From: Promethearchaeota archaeon
GTDB taxonomy: Archaea; Asgardarchaeota; Lokiarchaeia; Sigyniarchaeales; SOKP01
Length of the DNA: 14,357 bases
Reading direction: 5' to 3'
NCBI GenBank assembly: GCA_019894975.1
Contig: JAGXNO010000069.1
Location: forward strand, 1 to 14,357
Under the pieces are notes generated by a model. That model had not been told where the DNA came from. It saw nothing but the letters and a program-made list of their open reading frames with translations, and did not search any database. The stretch's first letter is position 1, and each line of letters opens with the position of its first letter. A program made the translations under genes and the position numbers. Positions 1 to 8,146 of the stretch are shown here, one piece after another.

Positions 1-406
1 CTTCAGGAGTCATGGCAACAAGATCACCCTTATTGTTTAAAATATCAAAAATCTTTTCGATAGGTTCAGTATCATCTTTGCTCTCAGTTCCACGAATCAT
101 ACCAAGGCTTTTAAGGACTGGTCCTAAAATTTGATGTTTCATCATTTTCGGATCAATCATAAAATGGATTTTACGACCAGATACCTGACTGATGATTAAC
201 ATATCTCGTATGATATCACCTGCCACCGTGGTCAAAATAGCTTTTCCCCTAACTGGTATATTCTCTTTACCTTCGATTCTTAAATTCATAAAAGCTTGAA
301 AAAATAACCCACTTAAGCCTTTTACAGCACCATATAACACATCAAGAGCAATTAATTTGGGATTTAACTTATCTGAGGCTTCTGAAACTACTTGTTCTTC
401 AACCAT
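1..406 (-). CDS. Lysophospholipid acyltransferase (PlsC/LPLAT)-fold protein, 3'-truncated by the window edge; HX4D histidine absent
   Basis: Not in the ORF track. Manual translation from ATG at 406 is open to base 1: MVEEQVVSEASDKLNPKLIALDVLYGAVKGLSGLFFQAFMNLRIEGKENIPVRGKAILTTVAGDIIRDMLIISQVSGRKIHFMIDPKMMKHQILGPVLKSLGMIRGTESKDDTEPIEKIFDILNNKGDLVAMTPE. 'IEGKENIP..G.AIL', 'IHFM', 'LG..LKSLG.I' and 'LVAMTPE' match the order and spacing of PlsC blocks. AAGGTG SD-like site upstream. Confidence 0.8.
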   Translation of the reverse strand, partial: MVEEQVVSEASDKLNPKLIALDVLYGAVKGLSGLFFQAFMNLRIEGKENIPVRGKAILTTVAGDIIRDMLIISQVSGRKIHFMIDPKMMKHQILGPVLKSLGMIRGTESKDDTEPIEKIFDILNNKGDLVAMTPE

Positions 407-430
407 ATGATATTTACACCTTTTATTATA

Positions 431-625
431 TTATAACTTATCGATAAAATTGTTGACTTCTTCCATTCTTTTTTCGTAATATTCTTTTAATTCCTTTTCT
501 GATACAAAACTGGGGATAACCTTTTCAGTATATACATCAAAAATCGTACTCAATTTTGTTTTATGTCTTAAAGTTTCGAGAAATTCCTCTCCTAACTCTT
601 TTAATTGCCTTAAAAACTCTGCCAT
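431..625 (-). CDS. Small (64 aa) charged alpha-helical hypothetical protein
   Basis: ORF track gives 431..652. The ATG at 625 is more likely: it lies 4 nt after the activase stop and follows GGGAGG inside the activase 3' end. Co-oriented and tightly packed within the operon. Confidence 0.7.
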   Translation of the reverse strand: MAEFLRQLKELGEEFLETLRHKTKLSTIFDVYTEKVIPSFVSEKELKEYYEKRMEEVNNFIDKL

Positions 626-629
626 CTTC

Positions 630-1652
630 CTAAAAAACCTCCCATTTTCCACATCTACTGCCCCAACGAGCTATTACTTTATTCTCATCTTCGGGCATTT
701 TGACTTGAACGATATCGCAGTTGTTGGGGCAATCACCGCACAGAAATGCTGATGTTTTAAATTCAAGATCACCCACATTGAGACCTCGAAACACAGTTTC
801 GGTAGGATGATCTAAATAATAATCTCTTACTAAGATTGCCATTCCTAAGGCACCCATTAAAACGTTATATTTCGGAACGATGACTCTACATTCCAAATGT
901 CTTTCAAAAGCTTGAATAATCCCCTTATTGTAGGATACTCCTCCTTGAAATACAATAGGCTCTGCTAATTCTTTACCTTTTGATAAATTATTCATATAAT
1001 TTCTAACTAATGAATCACACAATCCCGCAATGATATCTTCCTTAGAATATCCAGCATTCTGCTTGTGGATCATATCTGACTCTGCAAATACTGTACACCT
1101 CCCAGCAATACTTAATGGATTTTTAGATTTTACCGCATAACTACCAAATTCCTCGATAGGGATTCCAAGCCTTGAAGCTTGATGATCAAGAAATGATCCA
1201 GTACCCGCAGCACATACAGAGTTCATAGCAAAATCAACAATTATCCCATCTCGAAGAATTATGATTTTAGAATCTTGACCTCCTATTTCTAAGATTGTTC
1301 TTACATCAGGATATAATGCCTGTGCAGCAACAGCATGGGCGATAATCTCGGTTTTAGCAAGATCGCCACCAACAATAGCTTTTGTCAGATATCTTGCTGA
1401 ACCCGTAGTTCCACAACTACGTATTTCATATCCTAGTAAATTTTCATCTTGTTCAATTTGGTTTTTTAATTGTTCCATACCCGCTTTAGCAGATTCAATC
1501 GGAGAGCCCCTATTGCGTAAAAACACACTTGTAAGTACGTTACCATCCATATCCATCAATACAAACTTACAGGTTACACTTCCAATATCTATACCGAGAA
1601 ATGCATCTTGCTTTCCACCTTCTTTAACGACTTTATCAGATACTTGTACCAT
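630..1652 (-). CDS. ATP-dependent [4Fe-4S] acyl-CoA dehydratase activase (HgdC / BadF-BadG-BcrA-BcrD ASKHA family) with C-terminal Cys cluster
   Basis: Motifs GIDIGS, TTGSAR, EIIAH, EIGGQDSK, CAAGTG, RCTVFAES, QGGV; C-terminal CGDCPNNC...RCGKW. Confidence 0.95.
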   Translation of the reverse strand: MVQVSDKVVKEGGKQDAFLGIDIGSVTCKFVLMDMDGNVLTSVFLRNRGSPIESAKAGMEQLKNQIEQDENLLGYEIRSCGTTGSARYLTKAIVGGDLAKTEIIAHAVAAQALYPDVRTILEIGGQDSKIIILRDGIIVDFAMNSVCAAGTGSFLDHQASRLGIPIEEFGSYAVKSKNPLSIAGRCTVFAESDMIHKQNAGYSKEDIIAGLCDSLVRNYMNNLSKGKELAEPIVFQGGVSYNKGIIQAFERHLECRVIVPKYNVLMGALGMAILVRDYYLDHPTETVFRGLNVGDLEFKTSAFLCGDCPNNCDIVQVKMPEDENKVIARWGSRCGKWEVF

Positions 1653-1664
1653 TTAATCACATCT

Positions 1665-2852
1665 TTATTGAGTTTGAAGTAATTGAAAGCATTCTTGAAA
1701 AAAATGAGAACCATTTGATTTATAAAAATTTCTTTGATCATCTTCCAGAGAAATATTTTCAATTCCTAGTTTATGCTTTCGTCTTGATTCAATTAGGTCT
1801 ACAAAAGCTTCTAATCTCGTCCTCATACCTTCGGTTCCACTATGCTCGTCAAAGGAAAAGAATATTATCGGGAGATCGTAGATATTTTTAAGTTTATTTG
1901 TTATAATCGTCCGAGCAGTCACTTCGGGCATACAGGTGAAAGGATACACATGGACGCACCCACTAAAGCCAGTCTGAGCTCTATCAATATATTCCCCTAA
2001 AACCCATTGGCATTCTCCTCCAATATCCATTGGAACGTACGGATGAGATAAGTGTTCTAACCATTTTCGATGAAAATTCAGATGGAATTTATGTGAAACC
2101 CAATCCCATAAGCTTAAATTTTGATGAATCTCTACACCCATTTCTCCCAATTTGCGTCTAATATCTACATTAACAAAAGGTTCTAAACTTATGTGAATTT
2201 CCCCAAAAATAGCTACTCGTAAAGGAGTTCTCGTTCTATCTACATCAATTGTGTTAAAATCTTCTTTAATTAGATTTTTAAAACTTCTTAACTCCTTAAG
2301 AGTGTTGGCCTGATCAAGCTTATTTATTACGGTGTTAAAAACTTTAGTTGTGTCTCCTTGGTTACGTTCATAAGCTCGAAACAATCCTTCTGCTGTTTGA
2401 ATATCACTCAGCAATTTTGCTTTTTTCAAGAAGAATATGACAGCTTTAACAAACTTTGAATAGGCAAATAAGTCTCTTTTACTACTTAATTCTTGGAGAG
2501 TCTTGACCCATTTAAAGTCAAGTAAGTCCGCTTGATCTAATGGGATTATATTCACATTTTTATAACCCATATCATGCAAAAGACGCTCTTGAACGGCACC
2601 ATAAAAGCCAAATCGACAAGGACCGCAATCGATGGCCATAACCAAAGTATCAGCACCCTTTTTTATGGCACTAACAAAATCACCCAAGGTAGCTTTAAAT
2701 GGAAAACAAACAAATTCAGGACTATATTTTACCCCTATTTTAATAGCTTCCCGATTAGTTGGATCTGGGAGCACAACTTCTATATCAAGTTGTTCAAATA
2801 GAGTTTTAAATGCATAAACATTGGGTCCCATGTTAGGGAATGAGAGAATCAT
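1665..2852 (-). CDS. COG3581-like Fe-S reductase/dehydratase subunit (2-hydroxyacyl-CoA dehydratase-related, PlsR-type domain)
   Basis: SFPNMG N-terminus, PEFVCFPFK, GPCRFGFY, GEIH, PFTCMPE, FDEH...TRLEAFVD. 12 nt upstream of the activase. GAGGAG SD upstream. Confidence 0.85.
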   Translation of the reverse strand: MILSFPNMGPNVYAFKTLFEQLDIEVVLPDPTNREAIKIGVKYSPEFVCFPFKATLGDFVSAIKKGADTLVMAIDCGPCRFGFYGAVQERLLHDMGYKNVNIIPLDQADLLDFKWVKTLQELSSKRDLFAYSKFVKAVIFFLKKAKLLSDIQTAEGLFRAYERNQGDTTKVFNTVINKLDQANTLKELRSFKNLIKEDFNTIDVDRTRTPLRVAIFGEIHISLEPFVNVDIRRKLGEMGVEIHQNLSLWDWVSHKFHLNFHRKWLEHLSHPYVPMDIGGECQWVLGEYIDRAQTGFSGCVHVYPFTCMPEVTARTIITNKLKNIYDLPIIFFSFDEHSGTEGMRTRLEAFVDLIESRRKHKLGIENISLEDDQRNFYKSNGSHFFQECFQLLQTQ

Positions 2853-3068
2853 GTATCTTATAGCTCCTCAAGTCTTCTTAATACGTATTGATAACTGATG
2901 ATTGATTATAATCGACGTTTATTTAGATAAACTATTGTTTAAATAACAAAGCAAAAAATAAAAATATACCCATTTGAAACTAAATATCAGAAGTATGATT
3001 GTCCTTATTAAAAATTTCAGTTCTGGTTATTAATATTATGAAACATATAAGATACATCTTATCATATC
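2853..3068 (-). promoter_or_regulatory. Upstream regulatory region of the four-gene operon, with several palindromes
   Basis: 216-bp AT-rich intergenic region with an SD (ctcctc on the + strand) and palindromes at 2880-2889, 2904-2913, 2917-2932 and 3047-3062. Confidence 0.45.
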
Positions 3069-3467
3069 TTACGGTGTCTTATAATCTATTTGCAGAAGTT
3101 CAGTAATATGACCAAGTGTGTCTGTTGTATCAAAGTAGACAAATTTTGCAGGGCCAATTATACCTCCTAAAACTTGTTTCAATCCTTTTGAATCCCACTC
3201 TTTAATTTCCTCATCAACATCTTTAACTAAAAACCCTACGTGATGAAGGCCAACATTCCCTTCCTCTAAAAATGTATAAAATATTGAATTCTTGTCTTGA
3301 GGTTCAATCAAATCTACCTGTAGGTTTCCAATCATTGATCTTGCGACTTTTACTACACCCATATCAATTCGGGTAAACTTTTCTATACCAAATAGACTTT
3401 TGAATTCTTTAACTGCTGCCTCACCGTCTTTATAGACATATCCAAAATGATGAATCTTACCAAACAT
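3069..3467 (-). CDS. VOC/glyoxalase superfamily protein (methylmalonyl-CoA epimerase-like)
   Basis: HHFGYVYKD, DLIEP, GLHHVGFLVKD, YFDT...TELLQ. GGTGAT SD at 3476-3481. Confidence 0.9.
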   Translation of the reverse strand: MFGKIHHFGYVYKDGEAAVKEFKSLFGIEKFTRIDMGVVKVARSMIGNLQVDLIEPQDKNSIFYTFLEEGNVGLHHVGFLVKDVDEEIKEWDSKGLKQVLGGIIGPAKFVYFDTTDTLGHITELLQIDYKTP

Positions 3468-3550
3468 TGATTAAAATCACCTTTTATCTTATTATTATTG
3501 AAAAATACTTCATTTAGGTTTAAAAATTGTCTTAAGTTATTAATAAATTT

Positions 3551-4096
3551 TTACTCTTCTAATTCAGAACCACAGTATTCACAAATAACCTGATTTGGGT
3601 CTGAACTCTTTTTCCCGCAATTTTTACATTGGGTATATATATCTGCTCTCGCAATCTGAGGTGTGGGTATATTCCTTTCTTCAGGAGTTAGAGAAATATA
3701 TTTATTAAAACTGGCTTTCACTCCTGCACTATGAGTAGCAATAACTATTTTATGAAAACCAGGTGTGACTTTTGGTCGATTGGGAACAATTAGCCCTATT
3801 TTATCTCCTAATTTTAAAGATTTATCATAGATTTCTAAAACTTCTTTATTTGGATAAATTACTTCATCTATTTTAACATCATAATCAAAAGGATATGTGG
3901 TTGCATCATAGACGACAAGTTCATCAACTTTTATTATTAAATCTTCAACATATTGTTCTAAAGATTGATTCTGCATAATCGGAGGTAATTCAAATTCTAA
4001 GGAATCACCTAAAATAGATACATGTACCAAGCGTTTCGCAATTAAATTAGGAATCTTCTTAATCCTATCTCTAACATTTTCAAAAAACTTGGACAT
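3551..4096 (-). CDS. Hypothetical protein with C-terminal zinc ribbon
   Basis: 181-aa ORF ending CKNCG...CEYCGSEL; beta-rich N-terminal region followed by a Pro-rich linker. Confidence 0.8.
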   Translation of the reverse strand: MSKFFENVRDRIKKIPNLIAKRLVHVSILGDSLEFELPPIMQNQSLEQYVEDLIIKVDELVVYDATTYPFDYDVKIDEVIYPNKEVLEIYDKSLKLGDKIGLIVPNRPKVTPGFHKIVIATHSAGVKASFNKYISLTPEERNIPTPQIARADIYTQCKNCGKKSSDPNQVICEYCGSELEE

Positions 4097-4144
4097 ATTT
4101 ATTTATTTCATTACAATTTGTTAAAGTTTTTCTTCATCAGTTTT

Positions 4145-4300
4145 TTATGACAATGTGAAAGTACTTCCTTTTCCAAACTCACTTTCTATGATTAGATTTC
4201 CATCTAATAGATTAGCTAACTTTTTTGAAAGGTAAAGCCCCAGACCAGTTCCTTCTTTATGTTTTCCTGATTTCAGATCCCAGTTATTACCTTTAACAAA
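4145..4300 (-). pseudogene. Remnant of a sensor histidine kinase (HATPase_c C-terminal fragment)
   Basis: Manual translation: [51 protein letters not shown], containing the G2 box GTGLGL and terminal [10 protein letters not shown]. The frame is closed upstream by TAA at 4343-4345 and has no usable ATG/GTG/TTG start upstream of the homology. Confidence 0.85.
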
Positions 4301-4383
4301 TGTTTTTATTATACATATTTTACTATATAAAAGATTGAAGTTTTAATATAAGGTTTGATGAATAAGTGAAGTGATTAAAAAGA

Positions 4384-5403
4384 TTGAATTCTACAGTCAA
4401 AAAAGAGGAAAAGAAACCTAAACAGGGAAAAAAAGAAAAAAAGAAGAGACAAAAGGATGTCGACGCAAGTAATTCAATTGAGGATCAAGAAGAGATAAAA
4501 AAGAGTGGTATTTTTTCCGCTTTAGACCAAATTGATACCAAGAGTAAAGAAGAAACCAGAGTAATTGAGGAGACATTAAGAGCAGGATTGATAAAAAGTG
4601 AAAAGTCCGAAAAAATAGAAGAAAGTAAGAAACCAGATATTGGTATTATAAATATTAAAAATAAAATTGAAAATCTAAGGAAAATCAAAAAGGAGCACAA
4701 TAATAAAGGGAGATTCGAAAAAGCTATTGAAATCTCCAATAAAATAGTAACAATAGCGTTTTCAAATAATTTAAAGGAGATTATCAGTGAGGAAAAGAAA
4801 TTTTTAGAGTTAATTAAAAATAACCGTTATCAAAAACCTGAAACCGTTGAAACTGTTGAAAATGAAGAAGGTTTAAGCCTAATCGAACCCACAATCCCTT
4901 CAAAACAGGTAATAGAAGAAATAGATCCTAGAAAAGATAACATAAAACTAAAATCCAATAAACCCAAATCTCAAGGTAAGGAGAAATTTGAAGAAGAAAG
5001 TCAAAGGTTCATGGAAGAAAAAGAAGTATTTAAACAGGAGAAACTAAAGCTCGAAGAAGAAAAAGAAGCATTTCAATGGGAAAAACAAATGCTAGAAGAG
5101 GTTAAAAAATATGAAAGAGATAAAGAAAAAGAACCTTCAAAAGAGGATATTGAAAATATAATAGATAAGCATGAAATCGATGAAATTAAGAAATTTGAAC
5201 AAGAGAAGGAAGATTATTTGAAAGAAAAAGCCAATCTTGAGCAACAAAAACTAAAGTTTGAAGAAAAAAGAGAAATCTTCAATCAAGAAAAATTAAAGTT
5301 CGAAGAAGAAAAAGAGACGTTTAAATGGGAAAAGCAAATGTTTGAAGAAATGAAAAAGCATGAAAGAAATAAAGAAACAAAAAGTGATGTAAATGAAAAT
5401 TAA
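4384..5403 (+). CDS. Highly charged E/K-rich helical or coiled-coil protein with internal duplication
   Basis: 339-aa ORF with TTG start and strong purine bias; two heptad-repeat blocks, each ending in WEKQM. Confidence 0.8.
   Translation: MNSTVKKEEKKPKQGKKEKKKRQKDVDASNSIEDQEEIKKSGIFSALDQIDTKSKEETRVIEETLRAGLIKSEKSEKIEESKKPDIGIINIKNKIENLRKIKKEHNNKGRFEKAIEISNKIVTIAFSNNLKEIISEEKKFLELIKNNRYQKPETVETVENEEGLSLIEPTIPSKQVIEEIDPRKDNIKLKSNKPKSQGKEKFEEESQRFMEEKEVFKQEKLKLEEEKEAFQWEKQMLEEVKKYERDKEKEPSKEDIENIIDKHEIDEIKKFEQEKEDYLKEKANLEQQKLKFEEKREIFNQEKLKFEEEKETFKWEKQMFEEMKKHERNKETKSDVNEN
4984..5379 (+). repeat. Intragenic degenerate direct repeat: two blocks offset by 249 nt, built from 21-nt units
   Basis: FKQEKLKLEEEKEAFQWEKQMLEEVKKYERDKE versus FNQEKLKFEEEKETFKWEKQMFEEMKKHERNKE; Trp codons at 5077 and 5326. 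Confidence 0.85.
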
Positions 5404-5433
5404 AATAATATTTTCTTTTAGGTTTTTATCCAT

Positions 5434-6234
5434 CTAATCTCTATTTATATAATCCAGAAAAGCTTTCACTACCATATGGAATTTTGGATCTGGGACTACA
5501 GTTAAATGGTCTTTTCCTTGGATTTGGAAATGGCAAGCATCTGGGACCAGCTGAGCTACTAAGGTTTTATCCCCTGGAATAAGCTCATTAGATCCTACAA
5601 CTGTCATTATAGGCACTTTTATTTTTTTTAGAGATTCCTTAATTTGAGAAGGAAAGCCCATTATTTCAGTACCCTCATTTAGTAAACCAGTTGTCACTGC
5701 TGCCAGAGCTAATAAATCATTTCCTCTTAGTTCTGCGTATTGACGGAACGCACGAGCCACAGGATCTTTAATATCATCAACACTTTCTGCTTGGAACGCT
5801 TCTATATTTCGCTTCATTCTTTTTATATTATTAGATCTTGATTTATCCTCTTGAAGTAAATTTAACACAAATCCTCCAAGAATGGCAGAGATAAAGATCT
5901 CAGGATTAGATAATAATAATCGAAATGTAATATACGCACCCATAGAATAACCAAATAAATTTGCTTTCTTAATCGAAAGGTGTTTCATAAGTTTTATAAT
6001 ATCATCATCCATTTTTTGCCCATAATAGGATCCATCGTGGGGTTTATCACTTTTTCCATGACCTCGACAATCTAATAAAACTAATCTATAATTACCTTGT
6101 AAATATTTCATCCAATTAGTTTGTTTCCAATTACCTTCAAGACTCGATGCAAATCCATGGATCATTACAACTGGAGGTCCTTCTCCTTCTATTTCATAAT
6201 AGATCTTAACTCCATCATTATCAAAATACGGCAT
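5434..6234 (-). CDS. Alpha/beta fold hydrolase
   Basis: HGF oxyanion motif, DCRGHGKSDKP, GYSMG nucleophile elbow, GSNE acid, C-terminal DH His. Confidence 0.93.
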   Translation of the reverse strand: MPYFDNDGVKIYYEIEGEGPPVVMIHGFASSLEGNWKQTNWMKYLQGNYRLVLLDCRGHGKSDKPHDGSYYGQKMDDDIIKLMKHLSIKKANLFGYSMGAYITFRLLLSNPEIFISAILGGFVLNLLQEDKSRSNNIKRMKRNIEAFQAESVDDIKDPVARAFRQYAELRGNDLLALAAVTTGLLNEGTEIMGFPSQIKESLKKIKVPIMTVVGSNELIPGDKTLVAQLVPDACHFQIQGKDHLTVVPDPKFHMVVKAFLDYINRD

Positions 6235-6246
6235 ATCAATATATCC

Positions 6247-6531
6247 TTATTCTTCTTTTATCCTTCTTAATTCAATTTTAACTAAATTGAATTTATCCAT
6301 ACACTCCATATTAACAACGTCAGGATTTCCACCCCATTGTTTAGGAAATCCTCCTCCAAATTGAAGCATGGTAATATATGGGAATAAATCATGATAAAAA
6401 AAACCACATAATCCTCCCGCACTATGCCCACTTAATTCTATTTCATCTCCTACTTTATGACCCGCATTACAATTACCTTTTACTTCTTTTATTGTTCCTA
6501 CAACTCTGTAGCCAACCTTTACATCACTCAT
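6247..6531 (-). CDS. TIGR04076-family small Cys-rich protein
   Basis: VKGNCNAGHKVGD, GLCGFFYHDLFPY, ECMD pattern. GAGGT SD upstream. 12 nt from the hydrolase start. Confidence 0.85.
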   Translation of the reverse strand: MSDVKVGYRVVGTIKEVKGNCNAGHKVGDEIELSGHSAGGLCGFFYHDLFPYITMLQFGGGFPKQWGGNPDVVNMECMDKFNLVKIELRRIKEE

Positions 6532-6649
6532 TTAATACTACCTCATTTAAATCTAATTTTATATAATTTTAAGTTTGATTAATTATAGTGTTATTATTAT
6601 ACAATTAATTTAAATCAACTCCTTTAACTTTTGATTTATCGTGATCTAA

Positions 6650-8146
6650 ATGCTAAAATTACACGATTTAGGACAGCCAATAGAATTCTGGGATTATTTT
6701 GAGCAAATTTCAAAAATTCCACGTTGCTCTCAACATGAAGAAAAAATTAGAAATTTTATCCAAGGAGAAGGTAAAAAATTGGGATTTAAGACTAAAGTGG
6801 ATGAAATTGGTAATCTCGCAATAAGTATTCCCGCAAAATCCGTTGAAAAAGAAAAATTAATTTTACAATGTCATATGGATATGGTCTGCGAGAAGAATAA
6901 TGATGTAGTTCACGATTTCTCAAATGATCCGTTGAAATTAAAGATTATTGAGATTGAAAATAAAAAATGGCTAACTGCTGAAGGTACTACCCTAGGAGCT
7001 GATAATGGTACAGGAATATGTTTCAATCTTTCACTCATGAAAAAAATTCATGATGGTTCAATGAAATTTGATTCATTAAGCTTGGAATTATTATTTACTG
7101 TACTTGAAGAATTTAACCTAGGTGGTGCTAAAAATATCGATAAATCTTTAGTGAACGGAGATATGCTTATCAATCTCGACTCTGGGGGAGAGGGTAGAAT
7201 TACAAATGGTTGCACAGGTGGTATTGGGTTTATTGCTGATATTAAAACTAAACCTGTTTCTGTTGAGACACTAGAGGGCAATTTTATACCCCATCAGTTA
7301 ACTTTGAGTGGTTTAATTGGGGGACATTCTGGCGGAGATATTACGAGAGGTAGAGGAAATGCCAATAAACTCTTATGTCATATCCTTTGGAAGTTACATC
7401 AAAATTACTCGATTTATATTAACTCTATTAATGGAGGAAATGCTGCTAATGCCATTACGCGAGAAGCTTATTCGATACTTTTTTTAAAAGAAGGAGAGTT
7501 TTCAGAAATTAGATCTTACATTAATAGCCTCTTTATTGAATTAAAGAAAAATTATGAGGGAATTGAGGAAAATATGCGGTTTTCGATAGAAGAAGTTGAT
7601 ACAGGAGATATTGATACTGTTTTTTCTAAAGATATTCAAGGAACATTACTAGATCTTTTATATATAATTCCTAGTGGTCCTCTATCAACTCATCCAAAGA
7701 TCAGAGTGTTTGCCTTAGCATCAACCAATATAGGAATAATAAAAACGGAAAAAGATTACATTAGGATAAGGATGCTTCATCGAAGCTTTAGCAAATACTA
7801 CAATGAAAATACGTGTGAGCAAATTATTACCTTATTACAAATGTCTGGGCTTGATATGGAGAGGAAAATAACTGGAGGATATCCTCCTTGGGAACCAAAG
7901 TTTGATTCTAAACTTCTAAAAGTGGCAAAGAAAACTTATATGAAGTTATTCAAGCAAGAAGCTTCAATAATAATGATACAAGGGGGTTTAGAGCCAACAT
8001 TTTTAATAAATTTAAATCCAAAGATGGAAGCAATAGCAATTGGACCGACTGCTTCAAACGTTCATTCCCCTAATGAACGGTTATATGTAGATTCTGTTGA
8101 AAACACTTGGAAATTTCTTACTAATATCCTAAAAAAGTTAGACTAA
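6650..8146 (+). CDS. pepD: Aminoacyl-histidine (beta-Ala-His) dipeptidase, peptidase M20C
   Basis: IPRCS, QCHMDMVCEK, GTTLGADNG, EE, NLDS, GGHSG, RGNANK, YPPWEP, HSPNE. Confidence 0.93.
   Translation: MLKLHDLGQPIEFWDYFEQISKIPRCSQHEEKIRNFIQGEGKKLGFKTKVDEIGNLAISIPAKSVEKEKLILQCHMDMVCEKNNDVVHDFSNDPLKLKIIEIENKKWLTAEGTTLGADNGTGICFNLSLMKKIHDGSMKFDSLSLELLFTVLEEFNLGGAKNIDKSLVNGDMLINLDSGGEGRITNGCTGGIGFIADIKTKPVSVETLEGNFIPHQLTLSGLIGGHSGGDITRGRGNANKLLCHILWKLHQNYSIYINSINGGNAANAITREAYSILFLKEGEFSEIRSYINSLFIELKKNYEGIEENMRFSIEEVDTGDIDTVFSKDIQGTLLDLLYIIPSGPLSTHPKIRVFALASTNIGIIKTEKDYIRIRMLHRSFSKYYNENTCEQIITLLQMSGLDMERKITGGYPPWEPKFDSKLLKVAKKTYMKLFKQEASIIMIQGGLEPTFLINLNPKMEAIAIGPTASNVHSPNERLYVDSVENTWKFLTNILKKLD

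Follow-up and report, generated by a model that had tools for sequence, protein, structure and literature searches.

A PlsC-linked gene cluster for a split activase/reductase in a Lokiarchaeial genome, with a possible role in ether-lipid formation

We analyzed a 14,357-bp stretch of DNA, hereafter the window, that constitutes an entire contig (JAGXNO010000069.1; C141 in our numbering) of a 3.9-Mb, 32% GC metagenome-assembled genome (MAG) from a member of the Promethearchaeota (Lokiarchaeia). Four genes that run in the same direction occupy its minus strand from position 2852 to position 2, and we refer to them in that order as RedB, Act340, small64 and AT230 (Table 1). A preliminary description of the window had read these genes as an operon that converts ester lipids into ether lipids, in the manner of the Clostridium plasmalogen synthase PlsA/PlsR and of the related glycerol-ester reductase Ger. 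The present analysis partly supported that reading: together the four genes make up the downstream half of a lipid gene cluster of Lokiarchaeia, other parts of which lie on a second contig of the same genome.

Each of the four proteins had its nearest relatives in Promethearchaeota/Lokiarchaeia MAGs, which settles the host assignment and agrees with the earlier supposition of an Asgard archaeon. Open reading frame (ORF) coordinates and the sequence confirmed the common orientation of the genes and their intergenic gaps of 12, 4 and 24 nt, as well as the presence of ribosome-binding-like sites; read by eye, GGAGG/GGTG-like motifs stand 8–13 nt before every one of the four starts. For small64, the ATG at 625 agrees with the N-termini of 13 orthologs, and a mechanically listed 73-aa GTG ORF that overlaps the activase was set aside. 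Because the window is the whole 14,357-bp contig, genes beyond base 1 are absent from this assembly, and the remaining C-terminal part of the AT230 gene was not found elsewhere in it. The suggestion to read on past base 1 could nevertheless be followed in a longer contig from ENA that encodes an identical 395-aa protein: there the last gene is present in full at 230 aa, the operon stops after it, and a convergent Na/Ca-exchanger gene comes next.

Table 1. Positions of the conserved operon and its flanking features in the window.
Feature	Position	Strand	Description
RedB	1665..2852	-	395 aa; Red2-type subunit of a split reductase of the benzoyl-CoA reductase/2-hydroxyacyl-CoA dehydratase (BCR/HAD) superfamily; DUF2229 N-terminus, HGD-D-like C-terminus
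Act340	630..1652	-	340 aa; HgdC-type ATP-dependent activase; one BcrAD_BadFG domain
4-Cys tail of Act340	651..740	-	C305-x2-C308-x3-C312 ... C334; CGDCPNNC...RCGKW; C-terminal
small64	431..625	-	conserved 64-aa protein; begins 4 nt past the activase stop
AT230	2..406	-	first 135 codons of a 230-aa protein of PlsC/LPLAT fold; runs off the contig
AT-rich spacer upstream of RedB	2853..3068		216 nt; presumed promoter region
Glyoxalase-fold gene	3069-3467	same orientation as operon	next upstream of RedB; outside the conserved cluster

The N-terminus of RedB matched DUF2229 (PF09989) with 47.4 bits (cut-off 29.4), and its C-terminus reached the HGD-D family (PF06050) with 18.5 bits, under the Pfam cut-off of 28.4. 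Neither RedB nor its partner RedA, described below, was matched by any of the NCBIfam models for dehydratases, BCR or double-cubane proteins. Together with the tree presented below, these Pfam scores bore out the view that the protein belongs with Fe-S proteins built of DUF2229 'Red' modules and not with the HGD-D dehydratases. Three cysteines of RedB (C49, C79 and C307) were invariant among 43 relatives and are predicted to form a three-Cys [4Fe-4S] site. A single-sequence search of the PDB with RedB returned nothing relevant, and a profile was needed for matches. The RedB family profile reached HadC (E = 2.6e-5) and the double-cubane cluster protein (DCCP) via only ~65 C-terminal residues; this segment holds the third cysteine, which aligned to the FCDPE motif of HadC in the profile comparison. 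The AlphaFold model of RedB had a pLDDT (predicted local distance difference test) of 92.4, and the best 20 Foldseek matches in the PDB were all DCCP, HadBC, BzdNO or MbdON (TM ~0.5, probability 1.0). The model contains a largely helical insert of ~100 residues, at about residues 107–205, that is poorly conserved in sequence and includes one of the amphipathic segments that had been noted as consistent with membrane docking. By simple hydropathy, all of the proteins lacked predicted transmembrane helices.

Act340 matched PF01869 (E = 1.3e-49) and TIGR00241 (202.8 bits), and carries a single PF01869 domain, which corresponds to the second (Act2) and not the first (Act1) activase domain of the long proteins considered below. 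Residues C147 and C186 were invariant in 21 activases, and by comparison with the HgdC-type activator they would be the cluster-bridging cysteines, two per monomer. In the same 21 proteins, down to 50% identity, the tail motif C-x2-C-x-N-x-C (C305, C308, C312) and C334 were also invariant. The C-terminal CxxCxNxC cluster that the preliminary description had singled out is thus invariant in these activases, and the same four-Cys linker follows Act2 in 12 bacterial proteins of ~1400 aa and in a long protein of the host's own genome (on contig C162), where the counterpart reads CNACDNNC...LCSKY. We suggest that the four-Cys tail may be a metal or cluster site. Downstream of the activase gene, small64 encodes an acidic, probably helical protein with no cysteine and with 15 invariant columns among 14 orthologs. 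It matched no Pfam or NCBIfam family and gave no usable Atlas match, and it persists in some loci that have no PlsC-like gene. A complex prediction for RedB, the activase and AT230 with small64 as partner scored 0.00, a value that carries no weight for or against binding.

The acyltransferase-fold protein AT230 matched PF01553 with 20.8 bits as the fragment in the window and with 38.8 bits as the full 230-aa protein (cut-off 23). Its best fold match in the PDB was PlsC of Thermotoga maritima (5kym, E = 3.1e-5), obtained with a moderately confident model (pLDDT 72). Motifs II–IV are retained, and the N-terminal helices are hydrophobic or amphipathic. Within the HX4D motif the Asp is kept; the His column, however, held A, T or S in 121/121 relatives. 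Because this catalytic His is missing, AT230 is probably not an acyltransferase, and its reading as a working PlsC was rejected; this qualifies the earlier description of a PlsC-fold gene. Public records call members of the AT230 family lysophospholipid or 1-acyl-glycerol-3-phosphate acyltransferases, names that probably overstate their function. This calls for caution, since many 'PlsC' annotations in Asgard genomes belong to proteins without this His, which are probably inactive in acyl transfer.

The host genome contains two further DUF2229 loci, on contigs C14 and C162. The first (L007:1-4590) is a 4.6-kb contig of co-oriented genes for a thioesterase of the YbgC/FadM type, a double PlsC, RedA, and an N-terminal fragment of an acyl-CoA dehydrogenase, and it supplies the upstream half that the window lacks. 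RedA is a full-length DUF2229 protein of 351 aa (PF09989, 152.9 bits) with exactly three cysteines. The double PlsC, at 571 aa, has two strong PlsC domains, each with its HX4D and PEG motifs, and scores above the TIGR00530 cut-off. At E <= 0.001, the PF01553 matches in this genome were the two domains of the double PlsC and no others; a PlsY gene is present elsewhere in the genome. The second locus (L008:1-2715) encodes an Act-Act-DUF2229 protein of at least 905 aa that is cut by the contig end, a Ger/PlsA-like form already published for Lokiarchaeota. Its neighbors are a MarR-GNAT fusion and a flavoprotein of the old-yellow-enzyme type.

The comparison covered 40 loci of related genomes as well as 80 of named MAGs, the five-sequence alignment search having kept Asgard loci only. 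Synteny was counted over 71 loci with orthologs at >=61% identity, all in named Asgard MAGs, using only loci with enough flank. The activase gene followed RedB in 61/64 loci, the small64 gene followed in 55/60 and a PlsC-like gene in 51/60. That is, the four-gene synteny is conserved across related genomes, and the arrangement is far from chance. RedA lay directly upstream of RedB in 15 of 37 loci. Sister genera within the family have all of these genes in a single co-oriented cluster with the order HAD-2xPlsC-RedA-RedB-Act-small64-AT230 (HAD denoting here a HAD phosphatase); in the window's genus, this cluster is divided into two loci. The idea that the operon of the window is complete as it stands, with one Red and one Act, was rejected because adjacency of RedA and RedB is the rule in other lineages. 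Thus, linkage to PlsC-family genes was conserved, more strongly than the window itself shows, and the reductase of the window is incomplete, consisting of the Red2-type half only. Relatives at 47–54% identity, including those of Helarchaeota, showed acyltransferase(s)-RedA-RedB-Act without small64 and AT230, with the acyltransferase genes first in 7 of 8 loci.

Across 201 Asgard genomes, RedA and RedB had the same distribution at the level of families (numbered f1 to f27 here). In f1, RedA was found in 38/40 genomes and RedB in 34/40; both were found in f2 (3/3), f5 (18/21) and f27 (3/3), whereas f7 (0/43) and f12 (0/19) yielded neither. Two complete genomes of the window's own family also had neither RedA nor RedB.

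Several individual loci showed departures from this layout. Roughly 4 kb of unrelated ORFs separate RedB from the activase in L044:1731-5991 and L049:1804-5994, and the three of these that were tested in L044 had no Pfam match. In a distant Asgard family, a gene for a DegV (fatty-acid-binding) protein stands directly upstream of the RedA-RedB-Act core (L065:3901-4854), and in L067:9496-10389 such a gene is ~1.2 kb away. A Helarchaeota-like cluster, acyltransferase-HAD-RedA-RedB-Act, was seen in L158 (DATKTP010000256.1), which is labelled as the bacterium Candidatus Deferrimicrobium sp. and whose RedB is 49% identical to that of the window; this reflects either mis-binning or transfer. The same holds for a genome from another Asgard family (G031), the RedA of which is 79% identical to RedA of the host.

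The split proteins were next related to the single-chain enzymes. Ger has the layout B-B-D-H-D-D-H, in which two activase domains precede two reductase modules that both contain DUF2229 and HGD-D-like parts (PMC13159169), and PlsA has the order Act1-Act2-Red1, with Red2 fused or separate as PlsR (PMC12838417). In 12/12 bacterial B-B-D..H proteins of ~1400 aa, Act340, RedA and RedB were collinear with Act2 plus linker (~307–631), Red1 (~660–975) and Red2 (~1000–1390), respectively. RedA was 28–31% identical to the Red1 region over >90% of its length. Act340 scored 240–293 bits against Act2 plus linker vs 183–216 bits against Act1, and the alignment included the Cys tail, up to residue 339. RedB favored Red2, with domain E values of 1e-13 to 6e-20, vs ~1e-6 to 7e-10 on Red1.

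A tree of 51 rows, built by a quick IQ-TREE search with SH-aLRT support only and without the validated CPE1194/1195, Tmari_0479 and SHJ90043, placed RedA with Red1 (SH-aLRT 97). RedA, RedB, Red1 and Red2 were split from six HGD-D proteins of the host's own genome with a support of 99, so that the grouping with soluble 2-hydroxyacyl-CoA dehydratases, named beforehand as a refuting outcome, did not occur. Elsewhere in the host genome, nine HGD-D (PF06050) matches scored above the cut-off (67.8–327 bits; contigs C138, C55, C22 and C63), and the organism therefore also has conventional dehydratase/BCR-type systems. The architecture ascribed to the operon, that of PlsA/PlsR/Ger, stood as to the four-Cys tail and the DUF2229 modules; it did not stand as to the activase, which has one domain instead of two, or as to completeness, RedA being on C14 and not in the window.

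A paralogous three-gene set was observed directly upstream of RedB in sister genomes (L042:7373-11525, L043:7403-12194, L044:7352-12212, L054:5830-10603 and L055:5773-10546). It consists of a fusion of FAD_binding_4 with a full DUF2229/HGD-D module (~806–837 aa), a 343-aa activase and a RedB-like protein of 441–444 aa, and in the tree it nests within the acyltransferase-linked RedA/RedB clade. With RedB as the query, no such set was found in the host's own genome. The most elaborate locus (L081:975-9290; G113:C38) reads HAD-2xPlsC-RedA-[977-aa Act-Act-DUF2229 + 469-aa divergent Red2]-[FAD-Red, Act, Red441]-RedB-(4-kb insert)-Act-small-AT230. It thus holds three nested activase/reductase sets, one of which is a PlsA/PlsR-like pair (977 + 469 aa).

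We propose that RedAB, activated by Act340, attacks PlsC-made fatty-acyl glycerolipids at the ester carbonyl and turns them into alkenyl or alkyl ethers, in the manner of PlsAR and Ger; we judge the chances of this to be even. RedB of the window and RedA from C14 would pair as a HadBC-like heterodimer with a three-Cys [4Fe-4S] cluster in each subunit. A dimer of the activase would take an electron from a low-potential donor and inject it into RedAB upon ATP hydrolysis, and the invariant four-Cys tail would probably provide an extra metal or cluster site along the electron path. The substrate, by homology of architecture with PlsA/PlsR and Ger, would be the ester carbonyl of a fatty-acyl glycerolipid supplied by the double PlsC of C14, and the product an alk-1-enyl or alkyl ether lipid. 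The His-less AT230, which keeps its glycerolipid-binding motifs, would most likely serve to bind the lipid or to present it at the membrane and not to transfer an acyl group, and the 64-aa protein may be an accessory subunit. A broader statement, that Lokiarchaeia and Helarchaeota make fatty-acid-derived alkyl/alk-1-enyl ether glycerolipids by a disassembled PlsAR/Ger machine wired to their only PlsC enzymes and served by a dead PlsC-fold, lipid-presenting subunit, is one that we put forward only tentatively.

Several observations weigh against ether formation. The system has one activase domain, whereas every confirmed ether-lipid producer has two; the pair ('BB') is kept in all confirmed alkyl-ether producers (PMC13159169). 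The union of RedB with Red2 received a moderate SH-aLRT of 80 in the quick search (the RedB clade by itself had 95 and the Red2 clade 98). Because the tree did not include validated PlsA, PlsR or Ger, the ether-lipid link rests on shared architecture and Pfam DUF2229, a family with mostly uncharacterised members, rather than on orthology to an enzyme of proven activity. In the host's genome, the halves of the system are on separate contigs, and four genomes had RedA with no detected RedB. Two further Asgard families, f5 and f27 (30–36% identity), showed mostly a bare RedA-RedB-Act core, and three distant, probably bacterial, relatives of RedB had no acyltransferase neighbors and no clear context pattern. 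Lastly, the first lipid analysis of the cultured Lokiarchaeon yielded archaeal phospholipids only, according to PMC13400652, which also states that the method of that analysis might have missed ester-bonded lipids.

Some of these points would suit other explanations. The split RedAB and its activase may act on a PlsC-tied fatty-acyl substrate (an acyl-lipid, acyl-CoA or hydroxyacyl chain) and yet catalyze a different ketyl-radical reaction. Such a reaction might dehydrate or reduce the chain internally or, in the remodelling or scavenging of lipids, might cleave the ester reductively to yield an aldehyde or alcohol. The BCR/HAD superfamily spans dehydration, ring reduction and the reduction of small molecules, and sequence alone fixes no reaction; moreover, 2xPlsC-RedA lies on C14 between a thioesterase gene and a fragment of an acyl-CoA dehydrogenase gene, and the FAD_binding_4 domain fused to Red1 in the paralogous set hints at varied chemistry in the clade. 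What speaks for ether formation over such a reaction is the one-to-one collinearity with the Ger/PlsA layout, tail motif included, and the presence of a PlsA/PlsR-like pair inside the same cluster of one sister genome. We consider a different reaction on such a fatty-acyl substrate possible though doubtful.

Two readings that would remove the lipid link are unlikely. In one, the proteins are an ordinary soluble 2-hydroxyacyl-CoA dehydratase and its activator, used in amino-acid fermentation, with the acyltransferase as an incidental neighbor. The C-terminal HGD-D match of 18.5 bits, the HadC profile match over 65 residues, and the glyoxalase/methylmalonyl-CoA-epimerase-like gene and peptidases nearby in the window are what this reading can draw on. 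Against it, RedB falls below the HGD-D cut-off that nine true matches in the same genome clear, it is separated from such proteins in the tree and matches none of the NCBIfam models named above, the acyltransferase linkage is kept across Lokiarchaeia and Helarchaeota, and no CoA-transferase was seen in the cluster; we therefore regard fermentation as very improbable. In the other, RedB would work on its own as a homodimer on a small or unknown substrate, like DCCP with its reductase, and RedA/2xPlsC of C14 would be a separate system. DCCP chains were indeed the top fold matches (7yyl, 6eno), and both the unlinked halves in the window's genus and the four genomes with RedA and no detected RedB would fit. 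RedB, however, has three invariant cysteines vs the six of a double cubane, and the double-cubane model NF040772 gave no match; RedA and RedB are adjacent in every other lineage and share a common family distribution. A RedB homodimer is thus improbable, and we return to ether formation by RedAB as the preferred reading.

The remaining genes of the window, in the region 3069-8146, encode a glyoxalase-fold protein with weak likeness to methylmalonyl-CoA epimerase, a 181-aa protein with a zinc ribbon at its end, a 339-aa ORF of no family (4384-5403, plus strand), an alpha/beta hydrolase, a small protein of TIGR04076, and a dipeptidase of the beta-Ala-His type. None of these genes, including the glyoxalase-fold gene next to RedB, was kept beside the operon in other genera.

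The origin of eukaryotes, whose lipids are fatty-acyl, from a cell that had archaeal isoprenoid ether lipids is a long-standing problem. The locus bears on it as a conserved operon that ties the genome's only PlsC-family genes, at the threshold used, physically to a reductase of the Ger/PlsAR type. It offers a defined gene set with a specific expected product, non-isoprenoid 1-O-alk(en)yl glycerols, and hence a testable route to fatty-acid-derived ether lipids in the archaea most closely related to eukaryotes. Lokiarchaeota and Heimdallarchaeota have published Ger homologs (PMC13159169), and plsC and plsY have been reported separately in Asgard genomes (PMC6737245, PMC13400652). The split, acyltransferase-linked module was not found in the searchable full-text literature on DUF2229. 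Bacterial PlsY and PlsC take both glycerol-phosphate stereoisomers (PMC13400652), so that, if the proposed function is true, the lineage nearest to eukaryotes could be making hybrid lipids that span the archaeal/bacterial lipid divide.

Among known systems, the Lokiarchaeial cluster most invites comparison with Ger (Thermotoga maritima Tmari_0479; Desulfatibacillum alkenivorans SHJ90043) and with the single-chain PlsA of facultative anaerobes. These share the same modules in the same homology order, namely activase with four-Cys linker (assumed for the validated PlsA and Ger enzymes from the shared architecture), Red1 with a full DUF2229 and an HGD-D-like end, and Red2, and there is likeness also in strictly anaerobic hosts and in the tie to fatty-acyl glycerolipids. 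The Lokiarchaeial enzyme, in contrast, consists of three polypeptides with the gene order Red1-Red2-Act and one activase domain, and is known here from genes alone; its cluster adds PlsC genes, a HAD phosphatase, the 64-aa protein and the His-less PlsC-fold protein, none of which has been described for Ger. In the two-gene PlsA/PlsR operon of Clostridium perfringens, Red2 is a separate polypeptide (PlsR), like RedB. PlsA fuses two activase domains with Red1, whereas the system of the window separates all parts and adds accessory genes; a closer match to PlsA/PlsR is the pair of 977 aa (Act-Act-Red1) and 469 aa within the same cluster in sister genomes, and C162 carries a match of this kind in truncated form. 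HadBC with HadI, DCCP with DCCP-R, and BzdNO/MbdON have the same fold of the catalytic subunit, an ATP-driven HgdC-type activator with a bridging cluster, and a three-Cys site. RedB differs from these in falling below the family cut-offs, in forming a separate clade, in its helical insert of ~100 residues, and in a lipid rather than CoA-ester context. AT230, for its part, shares its fold and motifs II–IV with PlsC of T. maritima (5kym), and differs from it by A, T or S at the catalytic His.

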